Shown here piece after piece: positions 21,111 to 30,863 of a DNA stretch of 53,170 nt; positions within the stretch are counted from its first letter, which is position 1, and the number at the start of each line of letters is the position of its first letter. The stretch is from sequence record NZ_CP023007.1; one strand, written 5' to 3'. The stretch is from a plasmid. Under the pieces are notes generated by a model. The model did no database searches, was not told the origin of the DNA, and was given only the letters and a program-made list of their open reading frames with translations. Position numbers and translations under genes: made by a program.

Positions 21111-21896
21111 GAACAATAAACAACAGTTGTGGCCTCTTTTTGATGCTGTATAATTAAAGGGTTAGAACCGTGTCATTACTTAATGACATAAGTAAGGAGA
21201 GAAAAAGATGAAACATAATGAGCATCTATTAGATAAATCGTATTTCGAAAAAGTCGCTGCACTTTTTAATAAAGGACAGTCTGATCCCCTGCTAGGTGAG
21301 GCCATGTGAACATGGAATAATCTTCAGGAAGGTTTCACAGCCAATGAGCGCCTTCCAGACACGCTCGTTGATATTGCTGTTTGGCCCGTTTTTAATCGCG
21401 CTCCTCAGCTATATCGACAAGCACCACAAATAAAAACCCGCCCTGCGTAACTTTGGTCGGTTACAAGGCGGCAATGTATTTTGTAATCTAGACCACCGCC
21501 TTTAAAGCGGCTTGTCTGAGAAGCTCCGTTCACGCAGGGCTTCTTTTTCTTCCTCGCATTATAGCATGCCTTTAATTATCCTTCGACTATTTTAAATTAA
21601 CTTTCTAATAGTTCTAGGGGACGCACGTTTTTTTGTACTAAAACAAAGGTAAAAACTAGTAGACATAATCAAAATATTTTTTGATCATGAACCGTACAGT
21701 GTGCTCTTCTCAATTGATAACAAGGCCTTTGGTGCAAACTGTGAGCTGGGTCCTGGGAGCTTGCTTCCATTCATTAAAAGTCCCGTTTATCGTCTCTTAG
21801 TGCAGCTTAAAATACCAACGGTGGGCCCATTTTAGCCACCTCGCATGAATCTTTATATTCAACACAATTTGTAGATCAATCAGATCGTCCACCAAT

Positions 21897-21950
21897 TTGC
21901 ATAGGCACCACATATAGTGCTACAATGATATCCTAACTACTATATATAGA
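21897..21950 (+). promoter_or_regulatory. nrd promoter (TTGCAT-18-TACAAT) with two putative NrdR boxes ~31 bp apart
   Basis: Box 1 CACCACATATAGTGCT overlaps the spacer; box 2 ACTACTATATATAGAA contains the perfect palindrome CTATATATAG. Confidence 0.4.
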
Positions 21951-21963
21951 AAAAGGACGATGA

Positions 21964-22437
21964 TTAGTTACGGAAACCATAAACATTCTCTACATCAGTT
22001 TGAGTGGCAACACGAAATATTTTATTAGCAGACTGACAACATACTTTGAGAAAGAACATCATGTTCGGGTTAGTTCCATTAATGTTAAAGAACACCCTGA
22101 ATTCACCACTCTTGACCAGCCGTTTGTTACCTTCCTACCAGCCTTTCTTAAAGGTGGTAATGGGGTTAATAACGGTTATACTGAAATATTAACCACTATT
22201 TTGGGAGATTACCTCGCGTACGAAGGCAATTACCGGCATTGCTACGGTATTATCGGTAGCGGTAATCGTAATTTTAATAAGCAGTTTGCACTCACGGCTA
22301 AACAATATGCTAAACACTTCGATTTTCCTTACATTACCGATTTTGAGCTACGTGGCACCGCACACGACATTCCTCGCATTGCCAATGCCATCTTAACCTA
22401 TCGCAATCAATTTTGTTTTCAAACAACGAAGGAGTAA
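21964..22437 (+). CDS. nrdI: NrdI flavodoxin-like protein. The six-frame ORF starts at TTG 22000, but the conserved N-terminus LVTETINILYISLSGNT lies upstream in the same frame with no ATG
   Basis: The (L)VYISLSGNT FMN-binding motif spans 21964-22014. An ATG at 21960 is out of frame by one nt. Confidence 0.8.
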   Translation, partial: LVTETINILYISLSGNTKYFISRLTTYFEKEHHVRVSSINVKEHPEFTTLDQPFVTFLPAFLKGGNGVNNGYTEILTTILGDYLAYEGNYRHCYGIIGSGNRNFNKQFALTAKQYAKHFDFPYITDFELRGTAHDIPRIANAILTYRNQFCFQTTKE

Positions 22438-22443
22438 TCCCTA

Positions 22444-24612
22444 ATGGTAACTAGCACCCCAGAAATGGAAAATACCTATTTTTACTTAAATAACCTCGTA
22501 AATATCCCAAGCAACGGAGAAATTCCGCTACATTATGATCAAGAAGCCCTCAAGGCCTATTTTGAAGAGACGGTCGAACCAAAGACTAAACAATTTGATT
22601 CATTGGATGCCAAATTAAACTACTTAGTCGACGAAGATTACATTGATCCAGATATCTTGAATCAGTATTCCCACGAATTTGTGCGGTCCTTGTTCGACCG
22701 AATGAAAGACCATCACTTCCATTTCCGCAGCTTTCTCGGGGCGTACAAGTTTTACACACAGTACGCCATGAAAACCAACGACGGACAACAATTCTTGGAA
22801 GGTTTTATCGACCGTGTTGTCTTCAATGCTCTCTACCTTGCAAACGGTGATGAGCAACTTGCTAATGACGTTGCCGATGAATTAATTTCACAGCGTTACC
22901 AGCCCGCCACTCCCACTTTCCTCAACGCGGGGAAAAAGCGCCGCGGAGAAATGTTGTCGTGTTTCCTAATTGATATGGCCGATTCCATGCTCTCAATTGG
23001 ACGTGGCGTTAATTCTGCCCTTCAACTATCTCGAATCGGTGGGGGCGTCGGCGTTAACCTGTCAAACTTGCGCGCCTCAGGTGATCCTATTAAGCAGATT
23101 TCCAACGCCTCGTCTGGCGTTGTACCAGTGATGAAGTTACTTGAAGACTCATTTAGCTACAGTAACCAACTTGGGCAACGGAACGGCGCCGGAGTGGTTT
23201 ATCTCAACGTCTTCCATCCTGACATCTTACATTTTCTGGATACCAAAAAGGAAAATGCGGACGAAAAAATTCGGGTGAAGACCTTGTCCCTCGGTTTGAT
23301 TGTTCCTGATAAATATTATGAATTACTCAAGACTAACGAACCAATGTATCTTTTTAGCCCCTATGATGTCGAACGTGAATATCGTACGCCATTTGCTTAC
23401 ATCGATATCACCAAAGAATATAACAACATGGTCGCTAACCCCAATATTAAGAAGTCAGTCTTTAACGCGCGGAAACTAGAACAAAAGATTTCTCAACTCC
23501 AACAAGAATCTGGTTATCCTTACATCTTGAACATTGATACGGCCAACCAAACTAACCCTGTCGATGGCAAAATTATTATGAGTAACCTTTGTAGTGAGAT
23601 CTTACAGCCTCAAGAACCGTCAAAACTTGATGATGACCTATCGTACAAGACAATTGGCACCGATATTTCATGTAATCTCGGATCAACTAATATCATGAAT
23701 ATGATTGACTCGCCGGACTTCGGTCACTCAGTTGAGGTTGCTGTTCGTGCGCTCACCCTCGTAACTGACACAACCGACGTTAAGGAAGTACCGACTGTTA
23801 GACATGGTAACGAACTTTACCACACGATTGGATTAGGGGCTATGGGTCTGCATACTGCCCTTGCACGCCACCAAATTGAGTATGGCTCACCAGAGGCCCT
23901 TGAATTTACTGATGCCTACTTCCTAGCTTTAAACTACTATTCACTCGTTACGAGCAATAGAATTGCCCGTGAACGCCACGAAACCTTCGCTAAATTTGAC
24001 CAATCAAGGTACGCTGATGGTAGTTACTTCGATCAATACTTGAACGCAGACTTTGAATTTAAGAGTACCAAAGTTGCAGAGATTTTCAAAAACATTAAAT
24101 TACCATCTGTTGCCGACTGGGAGGCCCTCAAACAGGCCGTCATGGCGGATGGTCTTTACCATCGTAACCGACTTGCCGTGGCACCGAATGGTTCCATTTC
24201 GTACGTCAATGAAACGAGTGCGTCACTTCACCCAATCACACAATTAGTAGAACAACGGCAGGAAAATAAAGTGGGATCAATCTTCTACCCGGCACCCTAC
24301 CTGTCTAACGAAACTTTGCCCTACTACACGCCCGCATATGATATCGACCAACGCAAAATCATCGATACCTATGCCGTAGCGCAAAAACACATTGATCAAG
24401 GCATGAGTCTGACACTGTTCATGCGTTCAGTTTTGAAACCCGACCTTTACGAGTGGAAGGACAATGACAACTTGAAGATGACGACCCGGGACCTTAACCG
24501 GTTACGGAATTACGCCTGGACCAAAGGCATTAAGTCACTTTATTACATTCGAACGTTTACAGAAGACGATGAAATTAAAACGGCAAATGAATGTGAATCA
24601 TGCATGATCTAG
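22444..24612 (+). CDS. nrdE: class Ib ribonucleotide reductase alpha subunit
   Basis: Active-site NLCSEI and C-terminal CESC pair; 722 aa. Confidence 0.95.
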   Translation: MVTSTPEMENTYFYLNNLVNIPSNGEIPLHYDQEALKAYFEETVEPKTKQFDSLDAKLNYLVDEDYIDPDILNQYSHEFVRSLFDRMKDHHFHFRSFLGAYKFYTQYAMKTNDGQQFLEGFIDRVVFNALYLANGDEQLANDVADELISQRYQPATPTFLNAGKKRRGEMLSCFLIDMADSMLSIGRGVNSALQLSRIGGGVGVNLSNLRASGDPIKQISNASSGVVPVMKLLEDSFSYSNQLGQRNGAGVVYLNVFHPDILHFLDTKKENADEKIRVKTLSLGLIVPDKYYELLKTNEPMYLFSPYDVEREYRTPFAYIDITKEYNNMVANPNIKKSVFNARKLEQKISQLQQESGYPYILNIDTANQTNPVDGKIIMSNLCSEILQPQEPSKLDDDLSYKTIGTDISCNLGSTNIMNMIDSPDFGHSVEVAVRALTLVTDTTDVKEVPTVRHGNELYHTIGLGAMGLHTALARHQIEYGSPEALEFTDAYFLALNYYSLVTSNRIARERHETFAKFDQSRYADGSYFDQYLNADFEFKSTKVAEIFKNIKLPSVADWEALKQAVMADGLYHRNRLAVAPNGSISYVNETSASLHPITQLVEQRQENKVGSIFYPAPYLSNETLPYYTPAYDIDQRKIIDTYAVAQKHIDQGMSLTLFMRSVLKPDLYEWKDNDNLKMTTRDLNRLRNYAWTKGIKSLYYIRTFTEDDEIKTANECESCMI

Positions 24613-24719
24613 GAAATTCACTTGGGGTCTTACCGTCCGTTTAACACACCGGCATACGTTATTGGGTCACAAGACCCATATACCCCATGAATCCTAATTA
24701 AGGAGACGAACAAATAACG

Positions 24720-25646
24720 ATGGACTATTTATACTACAAAGCAATTAACTGGGATGACATTAAAGATAATTTCGATAAATACACGTGGGAACAACTCACC
24801 ACTAACTTTTGGTTGGACATTCGGATTCCCGTCACGAATGATCAACCAGCTTGGCAACAGCTAGCAGACACTCAACAACAGGCCATTACCCGCATGTTGG
24901 CAGGTGCATCGATGTTAGCCGTCTACCAATCAGAGGTCGGCACTCCTGCCATTCGCCATGATCGGCGAACCCAACAAGAAGAATCCGTATTAAATACCAT
25001 TACCTTCATGAAATCAGTCCATGCTAAGAGTTACACGACCATTTTTCGGGCCCTGATTCCAGGCAATGGTGGCGCAAATCTCACTTGGGCAGACAATAAT
25101 GCTGATCTGCAAGCTGAAATCGACCAACTCGCTCAAACGAGCACCAATGGCACGGCTTTACAAAAAAAAGCCCTTTTTATTTTGACCGAAACTGGTCTTT
25201 CATTTGGTAAATATTGGACAACCCTTCAAACCCATTCTCTCGTCAATACCTACCAAATGTTGGCCAATATTCTTCGTGGAAGTGCCATCTTTAGTGCCTA
25301 TGTCGGCTACAAATTTCACCTTGGGTTTGAAGACCTCGCGTCAAGTGACCAAGCCGAACTGCAGCATTGGATTAATACACAGTTTGATCAACTCATGCAA
25401 ACTGAAAAAGACTTCCTAGAAGCTAACCTTGACGATGCCGCCGAAGCCATCAATTTGGCCTACTATGGTGCCAATCATGCACTAATATCACTTGGTTTCG
25501 ATGCTGTCTACGAAGTTCAACCGTCTTCACTAGTGGCGCAACTCAAAGAACTGATGATTGACCAAAATCAATTTTTGCAACAGGTAACGGCTGCAAACAA
25601 TGAATCGGACACTGAAAAAATGACCGATGACGACTACGACTTTTAA
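24720..25646 (+). CDS. NrdF-like R2 paralog with a degenerate metal site: A67, K98, H101, E157, S188, F191 in place of D, E, H, E, E, H. It retains Tyr105 and the C-terminal DDDYDF tail
   Basis: Aligned to the downstream canonical nrdF (~35% identity) and to class Ib NrdF ligand positions. Confidence 0.8.
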   Translation: MDYLYYKAINWDDIKDNFDKYTWEQLTTNFWLDIRIPVTNDQPAWQQLADTQQQAITRMLAGASMLAVYQSEVGTPAIRHDRRTQQEESVLNTITFMKSVHAKSYTTIFRALIPGNGGANLTWADNNADLQAEIDQLAQTSTNGTALQKKALFILTETGLSFGKYWTTLQTHSLVNTYQMLANILRGSAIFSAYVGYKFHLGFEDLASSDQAELQHWINTQFDQLMQTEKDFLEANLDDAAEAINLAYYGANHALISLGFDAVYEVQPSSLVAQLKELMIDQNQFLQQVTAANNESDTEKMTDDDYDF

Positions 25647-25660
25647 GGAGCATTCAACTA

Positions 25661-26611
25661 ATGAGCTATAAAACAATTAACTGGGACATCATCGAAGACG
25701 AACTTGACGAATATGTATGGGATAAAGCAACGGCACAATACTGGCTGGATACGCGAGTACCTGTTTCTAATGATTTACGGGACTGGCGGACACTCTCTGG
25801 CACCGAAAAATCGGTTATCAATCGGGTTGTGGGTGGATTAGCCTTGCTGGACACACTCCAATCCGAAGAAGGAGTCGACGTGATGCGGCCCGACGTTCGG
25901 ACACGAAAAGAAGCAGCAGTCCTCAATGACTTTTTGATGATGGAGTCAATTCATGCCAAAAGCTACGGCACTATTTTGACATCTTTGAACGATCAAGCCA
26001 CTGTTGACGAAGTATTCAAATGGATGAACAATAATCCCAGAATGCAATACAAAGCCAAACGGATCAATGATATTTATCAAACGGGAAACAACCTTGAAAA
26101 GAAAGTTGCAAGCGTCTTTCTTGAAGGAATTTTGTACTACACCAACTTTTTTACCCCACTTTGGTACCGTGGTAACAATAAGCTGGCAAATCTTTCTGAA
26201 GTTATCAAACTGGTGATCCGCGATGAATCTGTTCATGGTACCTACCTCGGCTACAAATTTCAATTGGGATATAACGAGCTATCGGCGACTGAACAAAAAA
26301 CATTCAAAGAGTGGATGGATGAGTTGCTCGACGATCTCCTTGAGAACGAGTTTGCGTTCACCGAAGAAGTTTACGCGCCGATTGGGTTAGCGGAAGACGT
26401 TAAACAATTCGTTCACTACAACGCCAACAAGGCGCTCCAAAATATGGGCTTTGAATCCCGCTTCCCTAATGCTGAGATTAAAGATATCAACCCAATCGTA
26501 ATGAACGGAATTTCAACCGAAACGGCCAATCATGATTTCTTTTCACAAGTTGGTGCTGGCTATCTAATGGGTAATGCTGAAGCTATGAGTAGCGGCGACT
26601 ATGACTTCTAA
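25661..26611 (+). CDS. nrdF: class Ib ribonucleotide reductase beta subunit (canonical metal ligands)
   Basis: LLDT, MMESIHAKSY, FLEGI and RDESVHG are all present, as is the GDYDF tail. Confidence 0.95.
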   Translation: MSYKTINWDIIEDELDEYVWDKATAQYWLDTRVPVSNDLRDWRTLSGTEKSVINRVVGGLALLDTLQSEEGVDVMRPDVRTRKEAAVLNDFLMMESIHAKSYGTILTSLNDQATVDEVFKWMNNNPRMQYKAKRINDIYQTGNNLEKKVASVFLEGILYYTNFFTPLWYRGNNKLANLSEVIKLVIRDESVHGTYLGYKFQLGYNELSATEQKTFKEWMDELLDDLLENEFAFTEEVYAPIGLAEDVKQFVHYNANKALQNMGFESRFPNAEIKDINPIVMNGISTETANHDFFSQVGAGYLMGNAEAMSSGDYDF

Positions 26612-27411
26612 CATAGGCTTCTAGGCATAATTAAAATTAAAAAAAGGCTAATATCTACAGGAAATATTAAAGTAAATCCCCTGAGTTGTACTAGTCCCTG
26701 TCAAGTTGTCATTTGAAATAATATAATTTTTGCTTTGCTTAAACGGCCTCATTCCAGTATTCAGCTGGGTGAGGTCGTTTCTTGCTGGTGAACGATCTAG
26801 TTGATTAAAATAGTTGATGCCTTCTTCGGCCAAGGCCACTAATTCTTTATAGGTAACTGGTTTAGCGTGTCGATCAATCCAGCGCAATTTGAACTCGTTC
26901 CACCAACGTTCCATTGGTGCGTTATCATACGGCATTCCTGGTCGTGACATACTACGGGTGACTTCATGTTGCGCCAAAAAGTTATTGAATGTTCCTGATG
27001 TGCATGCCGAACCTCGGTCAGTACGCACTACAGGGTGGACGTCACCCGCAAAATTAAAGGCCCGTTGAAAAACTTGAACTTTTGCCTTCGAAGTTTCAGT
27101 TTCACTTAATTTATGGGCAATTAGATGGCGACCGTAAAGATCCAGCGCGCCACTCAAACGCACTTTATACTGACCGTTAACACCATAGGTCAATCCCGTT
27201 GAATCAGCTAACCAAACCTGGTTTGGTTGGTTAACGCTAAAACGCTGATTTAAAACATTATCTTGTAAGTATTGCTCCTGTTGTTTGATTCGTGAATGCT
27301 TTTTCTGACGAACCTGGCAACGAATGCCTAGCTTGCTCATAATCCGCTTAACTTGCTTTAACGCCACCTGTTCGGTGACGGCCGGGTCTTTTCTGAGATT
27401 AGATAATATTT
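26612..27411 (-). mobile_element. IS3-family 3' fragment (orfB integrase core 26648..27367, N-terminally truncated)
   Basis: DDE/rve-domain sequence; abuts the nrdF stop. Confidence 0.7.
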
Positions 27412-28176
27412 GGTAGCGTCAAGAATCTTGTGTAAATGAAATGCCTTCGTACATATAATATGTATCTAACTTAAATAAATGATGCTTCCAAGATGTCAGG
27501 GAGTCCTTTGAACCCTCGGTGGATCCGCTTCAGAGACTTCTCGTTATAAACATTAAACTGAGAAACCAGGAAGCGATCCAGTGAATCTTCCGTTGGAAAT
27601 TGTTCTTTGTGGTGGGTGGTGCGCTTGAGATGCTTATTAAAGTTCTCAATCAGGTTAGTGGAGTATAGTGATTGCCGGATAGCTGGTGGAAAGACCATGA
27701 AAGTGAGTAAATTCGGCATTTTAAGCAGTGGTAATTCCCTTGGTATACAACTGAATGACCGTTGTTTCTAAATTATCACTGTGCCGACCGTAGGCCGGCA
27801 AGGTATGATTTTCAAACCGGCCATTGCGATCTCGAGGAATGGTTAAGTTAAGTTGGCCGTACTTCGTATCAAACGAGCGCTGATAACTGCCGTTGCGGTT
27901 ATTACCAGTGTTAATCCCAGCGTATGAGTAGCGTTCGTAACCCAAAAACTCTGCCAATTCGGTTTGAAGCAGCTGGTTAATCGCAATTTCGAGGTGGTGA
28001 CGAAAAACTTCGTCTAAATCTTGCTTCTGGGCTAGTGCAGCGATAATTTCTGTGGTAAGTTCATTCATGGGGAATGCCTCCTGTGATGTTTTCTGTGGTT
28101 ACTAAATATCATAAGGGAAGGCATTCCCTATTTCTATACAATTCAGAAATCTCTTATGCATTTACACAAGATATTT
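27412..28176 (-). mobile_element. IS256-family element with an internal deletion (~760 bp): transposase N-terminal 115 aa (27721..28068) fused to C-terminal 82 aa (27471..27719)
   Basis: MNELTTEIIAALA..RNGSYQRSF..LNLTIPRDRNGRF N-terminus and KRTTHHKEQ C-terminus. Imperfect terminal IRs AGCGTCAAGAATCTTGTGTAAATG / CATTTACACAAGATATTTTACGCT. Confidence 0.75.
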
Positions 28177-28860
28177 TACGCTCTCATCAGGGGAGAATTG
28201 GTTTCTCCTTGAATGATCTACCTGAACATGGCGTACGCCAACGGCGTAACGTTGACCAACGATCCAAATATAATCAATCTTTGGGGCGATCAATTGAACA
28301 GCGTCCCATGATGATTAATCAACGTAATCGCATCGGCGATTTTGAACTAGATACAATTGTTGGCCCCCGTGGGCATAGTAAGGCAGTTTTATTAACCTTA
28401 ATCGATCGCAAATCACGTTTCCTTTGGGCCTACCGATTAAAAAACCGGACAGCAGTAACCGTTAATGAAGCCCTAAATAAGTTTCTAGCAACTTTTAATG
28501 GCCCGGTGCATAGTTTCACGGTGGACCGTGGCACTGAGTTTAGCGGGCTAGTATCACTTGAATCACAATATGGTATTAAGACCTATTACTGCCATGCTTA
28601 TACTCCAGCTGAACGTGGTAGTAATGAACGCTTTAATCGGAATTTACGTTATTTTTATCCTAAAGGGACTCGTTTTGAGCACATTAGTGCTCAAGATTTA
28701 ACGACGACGTTACTCCAAATTAACCAGCGACCGCTTAAAATACTCGACTGGCAAGCACCGTATCAGGTTATGCTGACAAATTTGTCAAAAAATTTGGATT
28801 AAATTTGCAATCTACCACTCAAATGCCATCCATGCCGTTGAAAAATATTCAACCCGTAAG
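28177..28860 (+). mobile_element. IS30-family 3' fragment (transposase C-terminal DDE region ~28270..28802)
   Basis: SIEQRP..INQRNRIGDFELDTIVG..DRKSRFLW..DRGTEFS. Confidence 0.7.
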
Positions 28861-29208: not shown

Positions 29209-29334
29209 GAAAATCCTCCTCAAGTGTATGGATAAGACCTATACCATTTTTCGATATTACTTTAGATTAATTCTAAATTATGTTTATGGTAATCTTAAAA
29301 AGTGTTAAAATTCTTGTCAGAGGGGGAATCACGA

Positions 29335-30863
29335 TGAAAACCTATACGGACTATTTCTTTGATGAGCCAGCGTTTGATCTCCACGATGGCGGTTACGTGC
29401 CGCTTGAGGTCAGTGATGCGCCTGAGAAGCCCTTAAATGTGCCGCCGTTGTTGAAACCGGATAAAGAGACGGCGACCGACGTTTATTACACGGTGACAGC
29501 AGAGGCTGGGGAAACGCAACTGTTACCTGGGGCGAAGACCAAGACGTGGGGCTATAATACCAGTCTGTTAGGTCAGACGATTGTGTATCGCCGTGGTCAG
29601 CATACGCATGTGACACTAAAAAACACCCTGCCTGAGTTGACCACTTTTCATTGGCATGGGGCTAATGTTAGTGGCCCTTATGTTGATGGCGGATGCCATG
29701 CGCCGGTTTATCCGGGTGAAAGTAAGCATATCGACTTCACATTGGAACAACCGGCGACGACTTTGTGGCTGCACGCGCATCCGTGCCCATCCACAGCCGA
29801 GCAGGTTTGGCATGGTTTGGCTGCCATGGTGATTGTCAAAGACGACCATGAAGCCAGCCTGCCATTGCCAAGGAACTATGGCGTTGACGATATTCCGGTC
29901 ATTTTGCAAGACCGGCGTTTTCATGAGAACAACCAGTGGGACTACCGGGCTGATTATGATCCTGACGGTGTTGCTGGGCCAACTGCAATGATTAACGGTA
30001 CAATCAATCCCTATTTTGATGTCACCACGCAAAAGGTCCGGTTGCGTTTTCTGGATGGTGCTAATCGCCGTGAATGGCGGTTGCATTTTTCCGATGACCT
30101 GCCATTTACGCAAATTGGCGGGGACGGCTCACTGTTACCGGAGCCGGTCAAATTTACCCATTTGATGCTGACTTGTGCTGAGCGTGCCGAAGTGATTGTT
30201 GATTTTGGCCAATACCATGAAGGCGACGAGGTCACCTTATATACGGATGATGTGCCATTGCTAAAGTTCCGCATTCATGCGTTCAAACCGGATCAGACTA
30301 CCTTGCCTGATAAGTTGTTCGATGTGAAGGCACCAGTGGTTGACCCGGCTTTGCCAGTTCGCCACGTTGTGATGCAGGGGATGGACGAAGGTGTTGCGAT
30401 TGATGGTAAAAAGTTTGCCATGCAGCGGATTGATGCCACGCAACCAATTGGCAAAGCCCAGTACTGGGATGTTACCAATAGCAATGATGCGCCTGGAATG
30501 GTTCATCCATTCCATGTGCATGGAACCCAATTCTTAGTCTTGTCGCGGAATGGGCATGCGCCGTATCCAAATGAACATGGTTTCAAAGATACAATTGGCG
30601 TGAATCCTGGTGAAACGGTTCGGCTGCTGGTTCGCTTTGATTTGCCAGGGGTTTATATGTATCACTGCCATATCATTGAGCACGAAGATGGCGGCATGAT
30701 GGCACAGATTGAAACATTCGATCCAGCCAAGCCAAAGCAAGAATATAAATTGATGGATATGGATACGTTAATGATGGCCTTGGCTAAAGAACGTGGCGTC
30801 AAACCATCTGAGATTTGGATGGGCGGTATGCAGTCTTATGAAAAAATGGGAATGAAAATGTAA
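29335..30863 (+). CDS. multicopper oxidase (laccase/CueO-like) with a Met-rich C-terminus
   Basis: Cu-site motifs HWHG, HAHP, HPFHVHG and HCHIIEHEDGGMM. RBS GAGGGGG upstream. Confidence 0.9.

Follow-up and report, generated by a model that had tools for sequence, protein, structure and literature searches.

A catalytically degenerate R2 paralog is conserved and paired with canonical NrdF in class Ib ribonucleotide reductase operons of Lactobacillales

The plasmid sequence NZ_CP023007.1 (53,170 nucleotides, hereafter the window, to which all positions refer) carries a class Ib ribonucleotide reductase (RNR) cluster, nrdI-nrdE-nrdF'-nrdF, composed of four co-directional open reading frames (ORFs) on the + strand (Table 1). 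An initial annotation, made from the sequence alone, had pointed out that two genes for the R2 (beta) subunit stand in tandem in this cluster, and the ORFs and coordinates it gave proved correct. Profile searches, a check named in that annotation, placed the product of the upstream gene, NrdF', within the R2 family and below the class Ib cut-off: NrdF' scored 140 bits with PF00268 (276 bits for NrdF), and it failed the class Ib NrdF model TIGR04171 with 192 bits (cut-off 355 bits), which NrdF passed. Both ORFs are intact and homologous, as claimed; their identity, estimated at about 35%, was measured as 32% over the full length (E=7e-60). The Prokaryotic Genome Annotation Pipeline (PGAP) gives NrdF' the generic name 'ribonucleotide-diphosphate reductase subunit beta'. 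The RNR region is 100% identical to that of NZ_CP118671.1, a 57.8-kb mobilizable plasmid of Pediococcus pentosaceus.

The residues of NrdF' were assigned by alignment to the adjacent NrdF and to Escherichia coli NrdF (PDB 3n37), which has the same numbering up to residue ~110. In the six metal-ligand columns NrdF' has A67, K98, H101, E157, S188 and F191, where NrdF has D, E, H, E, E and H. Four of the six ligands, including one His, are lost, exactly as first read. The window NrdF has the complete set (D64, E95, H98, E155, E189 and H192), together with Y102, the pathway Tyr Y301 and the DYDF tail, and the downstream copy showed D, E, H, Y, E, E, H at the ligand and radical-Tyr columns without exception in all loci compared. 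The A-K-H-E-S-F pattern, suggested as the object of a survey of Lactobacillaceae, was conserved in part. The paralog and its position in the operon are maintained and F191 is invariant in the Lactobacillaceae/Enterococcus set, but K98 is not universal, being E or A in other branches. H101 was found in all Lactobacillaceae, Enterococcus and Carnobacterium copies and is replaced by Asn in Streptococcus-type copies. The fifth ligand column is S or N and the sixth is F, except in the Streptococcus and Carnobacterium types, which have E and H, respectively.

The radical-forming Tyr is not conserved either. The window NrdF' has Tyr105, as had been noted; its orthologues have Y, C, A, T, V, I, L or F at this position. 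Within the clade that has K98, Cys105 (TGT/TGC) is the common state, even in copies 89-96% identical to that of the window, and Tyr (TAC) was restricted to one sub-clade; the largest 90% cluster of NrdF' (277 member sequences) is of the Cys105 form. Furthermore, and this was overlooked in the initial annotation, no NrdF' has the interfacial pathway Tyr (G-x-G-Y-L-x-G), whereas the HDFFSQVGAGYLMG motif with the pathway Tyr is invariant in the canonical NrdF partners. In two NrdF' copies from Enterococcus metagenome-assembled genomes (MAGs) a Tyr lies one position off the pathway site, but residue 105 is I or L. We take the pathway Tyr of NrdF to match Y356 of E. coli NrdB, which stands in a G-S-Y-L-V-G motif. 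An interfacial radical-transfer Tyr is common to every class I beta subunit characterised (PMC8463856). In Bacillus cereus R2b, the superoxide channel from NrdI to the metal site is lined by S162, Y166, K263 and N267 (PMC9462851); the last three correspond to F162, H and S in the window NrdF', and these positions vary across the family. Because the metal ligands, the pathway Tyr (in all lineages), the radical Tyr (in most lineages) and the NrdI-channel residues are lost, NrdF' is predicted to be unable to generate a radical or to pass it on, that is, to be catalytically dead.

Certain segments of NrdF' are nevertheless well conserved. Column entropy showed conservation peaks in residues 1-40 (motifs M-x-Y-L-Y-Y-K-A-I-N-W and W-E-x-L-T-x-x-F-W-L-D-x-R-x-P), in residues 81-103 (T-Q-Q-E-E-x-V-x-N...F-M-x-S-V-H-x-K), in residues 190-198 and in the tail (E-x-M-x-x-x-D-Y-D-F); elsewhere NrdF' was highly variable, unlike canonical NrdF, which is conserved along its whole length. 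The acidic-aromatic C-terminal tail is the R1-binding peptide of R2 proteins. M301, D305, Y306, D307 and F308 were invariant among NrdF' sequences (alignment A2), and M301 was still invariant, and D305 and Y306 nearly so, after the canonical NrdF sequences had been added to the alignment. DYDF was kept in every upstream copy compared, and the DDDYDF tail first noticed in the window copy is indeed present. The AlphaFold2 model of NrdF' is confident (predicted local distance difference test 88.6, predicted template modelling score 0.87) and shows an R2 fold, with a C-terminal tail that is disordered as in solved R2 structures. Its nearest Foldseek matches were the NrdF proteins of Streptococcus sanguinis (4n83), Salmonella and E. 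coli, with template modelling scores of 0.83-0.91 and root mean square deviations of 1.6-2.1 A; the Salmonella R1E-R2F complex 2bq1 was among the fold matches.

Part of the conserved N-terminal half aligns with residues involved in R2 dimerisation. By motif alignment, we take K95, E105 and E174 of human RRM2 to correspond to E24, I34 and K103 of NrdF'. K95 of RRM2, in the helix that precedes the conserved Trp, makes inter-protomer salt bridges to E105 and E174 that are needed for homodimerisation (PMC6642173). E24 was kept in 23 of the 24 NrdF' sequences, and K103 was invariant in every aligned NrdF' and NrdF. The retained segments of NrdF' therefore plausibly coincide with the R2 dimer interface and with the alpha-docking tail.

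NrdF' is a member of a conserved family. A search of 5.8 billion proteins gave a series of orthologues in Lactobacillaceae, from 98% down to ~41% identity. In a profile search of 1.84 billion cluster representatives, about 9-11 clusters (50% identity) scored above 330 bits and canonical NrdF appeared from ~234 bits down; by these scores the NrdF' family is small and discrete. A scan of GTDB with one genome per species identified 29 loci in 29 species, in Loigo-, Lactiplanti-, Pauci-, Liquori-, Secundi-, Levi-, Lacticasei- and Limosilactobacillus, Nicoliella, Leuconostoc, Periweissella, Enterococcus MAGs and two Streptococcus species. The cluster was also found in 166 PLSDB plasmids (at least 90% DNA identity), mainly from Lactiplantibacillus, Latilactobacillus and Pediococcus.

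The pairing of the two R2 genes is obligate in the loci examined. The order nrdI-nrdE-degenerate R2-canonical R2 was observed in every related locus with enough flanking sequence, including the chromosomal loci of Liquorilactobacillus hordei, Nicoliella lavandulae and Lacticaseibacillus porcinae and the Carnobacterium contigs. NrdF' was never the sole R2 of an operon in these loci, as a canonical nrdF always followed. Conversely, metagenomes were scanned with peptides specific to the clade of partner NrdF, and a degenerate R2 gene was present directly upstream in all ~27 loci with enough upstream sequence; among these metagenome loci, none had a partner NrdF without an upstream NrdF'. In the window, the nrdF Shine-Dalgarno sequence overlaps the nrdF' stop codon, and the nrdF'-nrdF gap is usually 3-14 nt at other loci. 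The overlap suggests translational coupling, an arrangement typical of coupled subunits.

The ratio of non-synonymous to synonymous substitutions (dN/dS) was calculated by the Nei-Gojobori method, only for pairs with dS below ~1.4, since synonymous sites saturate below 70% identity. For nrdF' it was 0.09-0.12 (window versus locus L013, dN 0.047 and dS 0.43; L009 versus L013, 0.093; L004 versus L029, 0.119), compared with 0.02-0.05 for nrdF, 0.03-0.05 for nrdE and 0.07-0.10 for nrdI. NrdF' is under purifying selection; the constraint is 3-4 times more relaxed than on its neighbours, yet far from neutrality. When the RNR region of the window (22000-26611) was compared with L013 and L009, synonymous divergence was very uneven along the operon; for the window and L013, dS was 0.011 for nrdI, 0.30 for nrdE, 0.43 for nrdF' and 0.015 for nrdF. 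Because adjacent genes differ so widely in synonymous divergence for the same pair of replicons, the plasmid operons are recombination mosaics.

In a neighbour-joining tree, all upstream copies of Lactobacillales were monophyletic and sister to canonical Lactobacillales NrdF, and their topology mirrored that of the downstream copies. This monophyly and the mirrored topology fit a single old tandem duplication of nrdF followed by co-divergence of the two copies, NrdF' evolving faster. The partner has also changed: compared with 47 stand-alone canonical NrdF sequences, the paired NrdF carries 32 clade-specific fixed substitutions, five of which cluster in residues 17-25 (E, V, D, A, A for K, T, E, L, E), in the helix homologous to the K95 region of RRM2. 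NrdF' keeps the ancestral K, T, E, L in this helix.

The upstream copies of the Streptococcus type (A/S, E, N, Y/F, E, E, H at the ligand and radical-Tyr columns) and of the Carnobacterium type (A, E, H, Y, E, E, H) are much less degenerate (L033:4035-4988, L034:3636-4601, L035:6001-6960 and many metagenome loci, L047-L070). They lack only the Asp, with or without one His, and the pathway Tyr. Streptococci are reported to have a gene, nrdK, between nrdE and nrdF, which could be related to the Streptococcus type. In the Carnobacterium type, the least degenerate lineage, the Asp and the pathway Tyr are already gone; these two appear to have been the first losses, and the Streptococcus and Carnobacterium types appear to represent early stages of the same degeneration series. 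Another degenerate NrdF-like protein, P0183 (E, N.., N, T, S at the ligand columns), has no acidic C-terminal tail and branches at the base of the NrdF' clade.

A tandem of similar design was found outside Lactobacillales. In an actinobacterial metagenome contig (L074:71-6731; also L075), a degenerate nrdF-like gene immediately precedes a canonical nrdF that is split by an intein; nrdH and an nrdE that also contains an intein come next. The degenerate copy has the replacements E->N, Y->A, E->K and H->N and lacks the GSSYVIG motif, and its tail, DDDDWDF, is kept. In the neighbour-joining tree it grouped with actinobacterial NrdF, not with the NrdF' of Lactobacillales. A dead R2 gene in tandem with a live one has thus probably arisen independently on two or more occasions. 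Among the NrdF homologues collected, many proteins of ~550-1000 aa (P0102-P0139) aligned to the profile in two or three separate segments, interrupted near its position 99, beside the first E-x-x-H, or near position 190; these are probably intein-containing NrdF proteins.

The initial annotation had offered two readings of NrdF', an inert partner of NrdF comparable to yeast Rnr4 and a metal-independent radical-generating R2. The first is the better supported: the two genes co-occur obligately, selection on NrdF' is purifying, and both its NrdE-binding tail and its segments homologous to the interface are retained. The overlap of the nrdF' stop codon with the nrdF Shine-Dalgarno sequence, the changes of the partner in the interface helix, the mirrored trees and the actinobacterial tandem, in which losses and retentions are the same, also speak for it. 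We favour, with a probability of roughly 0.55, the interpretation that NrdF' is a non-catalytic beta' subunit that docks on NrdE and heterodimerises with canonical NrdF, in the manner of Rnr2-Rnr4. According to this model, nrdF was duplicated in tandem long ago in Lactobacillales and one copy became dead yet was selectively maintained. NrdF' would pair with the co-translated NrdF to form a beta-beta' heterodimer, in which only the NrdF protomer would carry the Mn2-Y* cofactor, built with NrdI and O2; the two C-terminal tails would anchor the beta-beta' dimer on the NrdE dimer, and NrdF' would stabilise or activate NrdF. The analysis shows the degenerate catalytic residues, the purifying selection, the obligate pairing of the genes, the fold and the conserved tail, and from these heterodimer formation and a stabilising or activating role are inferred. 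Class I RNRs show half-of-sites reactivity (PMC8463856), so that one live protomer per dimer would be mechanistically sufficient. The more general proposal that the class Ib RNR of many Lactobacillales, and independently of some Actinobacteria, is an obligate asymmetric alpha2-beta-beta' enzyme with one permanently dead protomer, the first bacterial counterpart of Rnr2-Rnr4, which evolved at least twice, is more tentative, and we rate its chances at slightly less than even.

Several observations weigh against this interpretation. The retained segments homologous to the interface support homodimers and heterodimers equally. The position of the interface was carried over from human R2, a class Ia protein, rather than taken from a class Ib structure. 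At 3-5 times the rate of NrdF, the evolution of NrdF' is faster than would be usual in a tight obligate partner; Rnr4-type subunits, however, have diverged as well. Finally, the neighbour-joining tree is open to long-branch attraction, and the set of stand-alone NrdF is taxonomically narrow (mostly streptococci, vagococci and enterococci), so that the substitutions in the partner could be plain phylogenetic signal.

The explanation that comes next in order is one that we consider unlikely. NrdF' could act as a homodimer, a decoy or regulator that fills the beta-tail site on NrdE and either tunes activity or holds and stabilises the NrdE of this ATP-cone-less class Ib enzyme, without any partnership with NrdF. 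The tail is the most strictly conserved feature of NrdF', the segments homologous to the dimer interface are retained and all radical functions are lost, as this would require. However, an inhibitor gene placed between nrdE and nrdF and coupled to nrdF would merely titrate the enzyme made from the same mRNA. Moreover, the partner NrdF clade was never seen without NrdF' and is itself altered in the putative interface helix, which mutual dependence of the two proteins explains better.

Less probable still is a transient role of NrdF' in the assembly or maturation of NrdF or NrdE, for instance as a scaffold in Mn loading or NrdI action or as a folding chaperone, outside the working holoenzyme. 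Its obligate co-occurrence with NrdF and NrdI would be in agreement with such a function, and yeast Rnr4 is needed for cofactor assembly in Rnr2. On the other hand, NrdF' has not conserved the residues of the NrdI channel and contact, and a purely transient factor has no obvious need for a strictly conserved NrdE-binding tail.

The second reading of the initial annotation, an NrdF' that generates a radical without metal, in which K98 would fill metal site 1, Tyr105 would serve as the radical or 3,4-dihydroxyphenylalanine (DOPA) site and NrdI would be the activase, is now very improbable. It was suggested by the window copy, which has Y105, K98, H101, W31 and the tail, and class Ie shows that metal-free R2 proteins exist (PMC11846895). 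However, the loss of Tyr105 in orthologues, named beforehand as counter-evidence, was observed, with Cys in most members of the K98 clade and A, T, V, I, L or F elsewhere. The replacement of K98 by E or A in other branches led us to reject it as a conserved substitute for metal 1, and no NrdF' has kept the class Ie Asp beside the DOPA site (D88 in Mesoplasma florum R2e, D112 in Gardnerella vaginalis R2e). A pathway Tyr of the Y356 type is lacking, the Lys and Asn of the NrdI channel are not kept, and NrdF' is never the only R2 of its operon.

The idea of a decaying duplicate, pseudogene or relic without function, to which the loss of catalytic residues and the faster evolution of NrdF' might point and which the initial annotation had already doubted, can practically be dismissed, since the ORF is intact (305-319 aa) across lineages diverged to ~29-45% identity, dN/dS is ~0.1 and not near 1, the tail and the N-terminal motifs do not vary, the fold is predicted with confidence, the Shine-Dalgarno sequence is strong and the gene is found in 29 GTDB species rather than here only.

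The surroundings of the cluster were also inspected. The annotated nrdI start, a TTG at 22000, falls within the stretch that codes for the conserved N-terminal strand of NrdI (..INILYISLSGNT), part of which lies upstream of it (region 21961-22014). Translation from TTG 22000 would lose the first beta-strand, an arrangement common to all loci of the plasmid clade; chromosomal NrdI orthologues are longer (150-160 aa). No in-frame ATG, GTG or TTG was found between the stop codon at 21961-21963 and position 22000; the ATG at 21960 is in another frame. From the encoded strand, the true start may lie upstream, at ~21979-21985, and the oddity may come from a non-canonical ATA or ATT start or from an annotation problem. 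A candidate extended -10 promoter of the operon (TTGCAT, 18 nt, TGCTACAAT) is located ~35-75 nt upstream of nrdI; it is our own reading and was sub-threshold in the promoter scan. Between 21100 and 26900, promoters and terminators were predicted no more often than expected by chance and none of them divides the operon, and the NrdR box consensus ACACWATATATWGTGT had no match in the window with up to three mismatches. A ~900-nt spacer separates nrdI from an aminotransferase gene and contains a small ORF annotated in RefSeq. Remnants of insertion sequences (IS) are present on both strands directly after the operon (26648-28802), and a multicopper oxidase gene lies beyond them. Because the IS remnants directly follow it, the operon fits a mobile cargo module.

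Table 1. Features of the nrdI-nrdE-nrdF'-nrdF region, in window positions.
Feature	Position	Strand	Description
Putative holin-like toxin ORF	~21344..21433		29 aa, RefSeq annotation
Candidate extended -10 promoter	21897..21926		upstream of nrdI
nrdI	22000..22437	+	flavodoxin-like class Ib RNR activase; PF07972 1.4e-31; NF002714 182 bits; PGAP: NrdI
nrdE	22444..24612	+	class Ib catalytic alpha subunit; TIGR04170 1090 bits (cut-off 750); Pfam RNR_N, lgN, lgC
nrdF' Shine-Dalgarno AAGGAG	24700..24705	+	14 nt upstream of nrdF' ATG; read from sequence
nrdF'	24720..25646	+	degenerate, predicted non-catalytic R2 paralog, 308 aa; PF00268 match, below NrdF equivalog cut-off
A67 codon	24918..24920	+	replaces Asp ligand; Asp lost in every NrdF' (A, N, S or T)
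K98-S-V-H101 codons	25011..25022	+	in place of first E-x-x-H motif
Y105 codon TAC	25032..25034	+	radical-Tyr position; not conserved
E157 codon	25188..25190	+	the one carboxylate ligand mostly retained
S188-A-I-F191 codons	25281..25292	+	in place of second E-x-x-H motif
A290-A-N-N-E-S295 codons	25587..25604	+	where canonical NrdF has G-A-G-Y-L-M-G with the interfacial pathway Tyr
E299-K-M-T-D-D-D-Y-D-F308 codons	25614..25643	+	C-terminal peptide; conserved putative NrdE-binding tail
nrdF Shine-Dalgarno AAGGAG	25645..25650	+	overlaps nrdF' stop codon (25644-25646); nrdF ATG at 25661; read from sequence
nrdF	25661..26611	+	canonical class Ib beta subunit, 316 aa; TIGR04171 430 bits (cut-off 355)
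DDE transposase	26648..27367		IS remnant
Split transposase	27471..28068		two fragments
IS30-like ORF	28074..28802		IS remnant
Multicopper oxidase	29280..30863		beyond the IS cluster

To our knowledge, bacterial class I RNRs are regarded as symmetric beta2 homodimers. A conserved, obligately paired dead R2 subunit is real, widespread and apparently undescribed: no published description of the NrdF' paralog was found in the literature searched (NrdF/Rnr4 heterodimers, class Ie variants and plasmid nrdF), the coverage of which was incomplete. The survey of class Ie in GTDB genomes took in the QSK and VPK patterns only (PMC11846895). If our interpretation is correct, a conserved dead beta' in class Ib operons means that bacteria too use asymmetric small subunits, and these operons would show in nature that a single radical-bearing protomer in the beta dimer suffices, perhaps with an advantage. 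They would also provide a two-gene model for the roles of the second beta protomer and of its tail in holoenzyme assembly, in half-of-sites reactivity and in Mn/NrdI-dependent cofactor maturation. Operons of this kind are spread across lactic acid bacteria, and some are carried by very common plasmids of food and probiotic Lactiplantibacillus, Latilactobacillus and Pediococcus. For annotation, generically named nrdF' genes could be miscounted as functional or class Ie-like R2 genes.

NrdF' was compared with the known types of R2 proteins. It is not an R2lox protein: the R2lox model NF006200 did not match NrdF' (it gave a weak, sub-threshold match to NrdF), its ligands are lost and an alpha-binding tail is present, whereas R2lox proteins have the full Mn/Fe ligand set and lack such a tail. 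NrdF' shares with canonical class Ib NrdF (S. sanguinis 4n83, E. coli 3n37) the fold, 30-37% identity, W31, K103 and the C-terminal peptide; it differs by the loss of three to four of the six ligands and of the interfacial Tyr and by its score below the TIGR04171 cut-off. A functional class Ib NrdF is rejected on account of the ligands, the TIGR04171 score and the radical and pathway Tyr residues, in spite of the R2 fold and the C-terminal alpha-binding peptide.

The class Ie proteins (QSK or VPK NrdF of M. florum, Aerococcus urinae, Streptococcus pyogenes and G. vaginalis) resemble NrdF' in their origin from class Ib NrdF, the loss of metal carboxylates, the position of the gene beside nrdI and nrdE and the presence of a Lys in the former metal site. 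In class Ie the changes are E->Q/V, E->S/P and E->K, the Asp, both His and the DOPA-forming Tyr are kept, and the protein can be the only aerobic R2 of the organism (PMC11846895). In NrdF' the changes are D->A, E->K, E->S and H->F, with one E kept; the Lys occupies another ligand position, the Tyr is not conserved, and a canonical NrdF is always adjacent. In addition, class Ie keeps the pathway Tyr, which NrdF' lacks. The initial annotation was right that the substitution pattern resembles neither class Ib nor class Ie. Membership in class Ie is rejected, as NrdF' shows neither its substitution pattern nor its conserved Tyr nor the capability to be a sole R2.

Non-catalytic R2 partners are familiar from eukaryotes, with Rnr4 of yeast as the example. 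A heterodimeric beta-beta' R2 in which beta' is unable to assemble the cofactor has been described, and the apicomplexan R2_e2/PfR4 is a divergent second R2 beside an orthodox one that lacks the radical-forming Tyr (PMC3824934). NrdF' is like R2_e2/PfR4 in being a divergent second R2 that coexists with an orthodox one; R2_e2/PfR4 differs in belonging to the eukaryotic class Ia lineage and in not being operon-linked. Yeast Rnr4 is the closer parallel, being an R2-fold paralog that has lost several metal ligands, cannot assemble the cofactor, coexists with a canonical R2 and is under selection. NrdF' differs from it in being bacterial, class Ib (Mn/NrdI-dependent), operon-encoded and present on mobile plasmids, and the heterodimer, established in yeast, is a prediction here. 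NrdF' also arose independently, from NrdF within Lactobacillales, has other ligands substituted and is variable at the radical-Tyr position. As a ligand-depleted R2 paralog that coexists with a canonical R2 under purifying selection, NrdF' nevertheless corresponds to the Rnr4 type, by functional analogy and not by phylogenetic membership, and it is probably the bacterial class Ib analogue of an inert beta' subunit.

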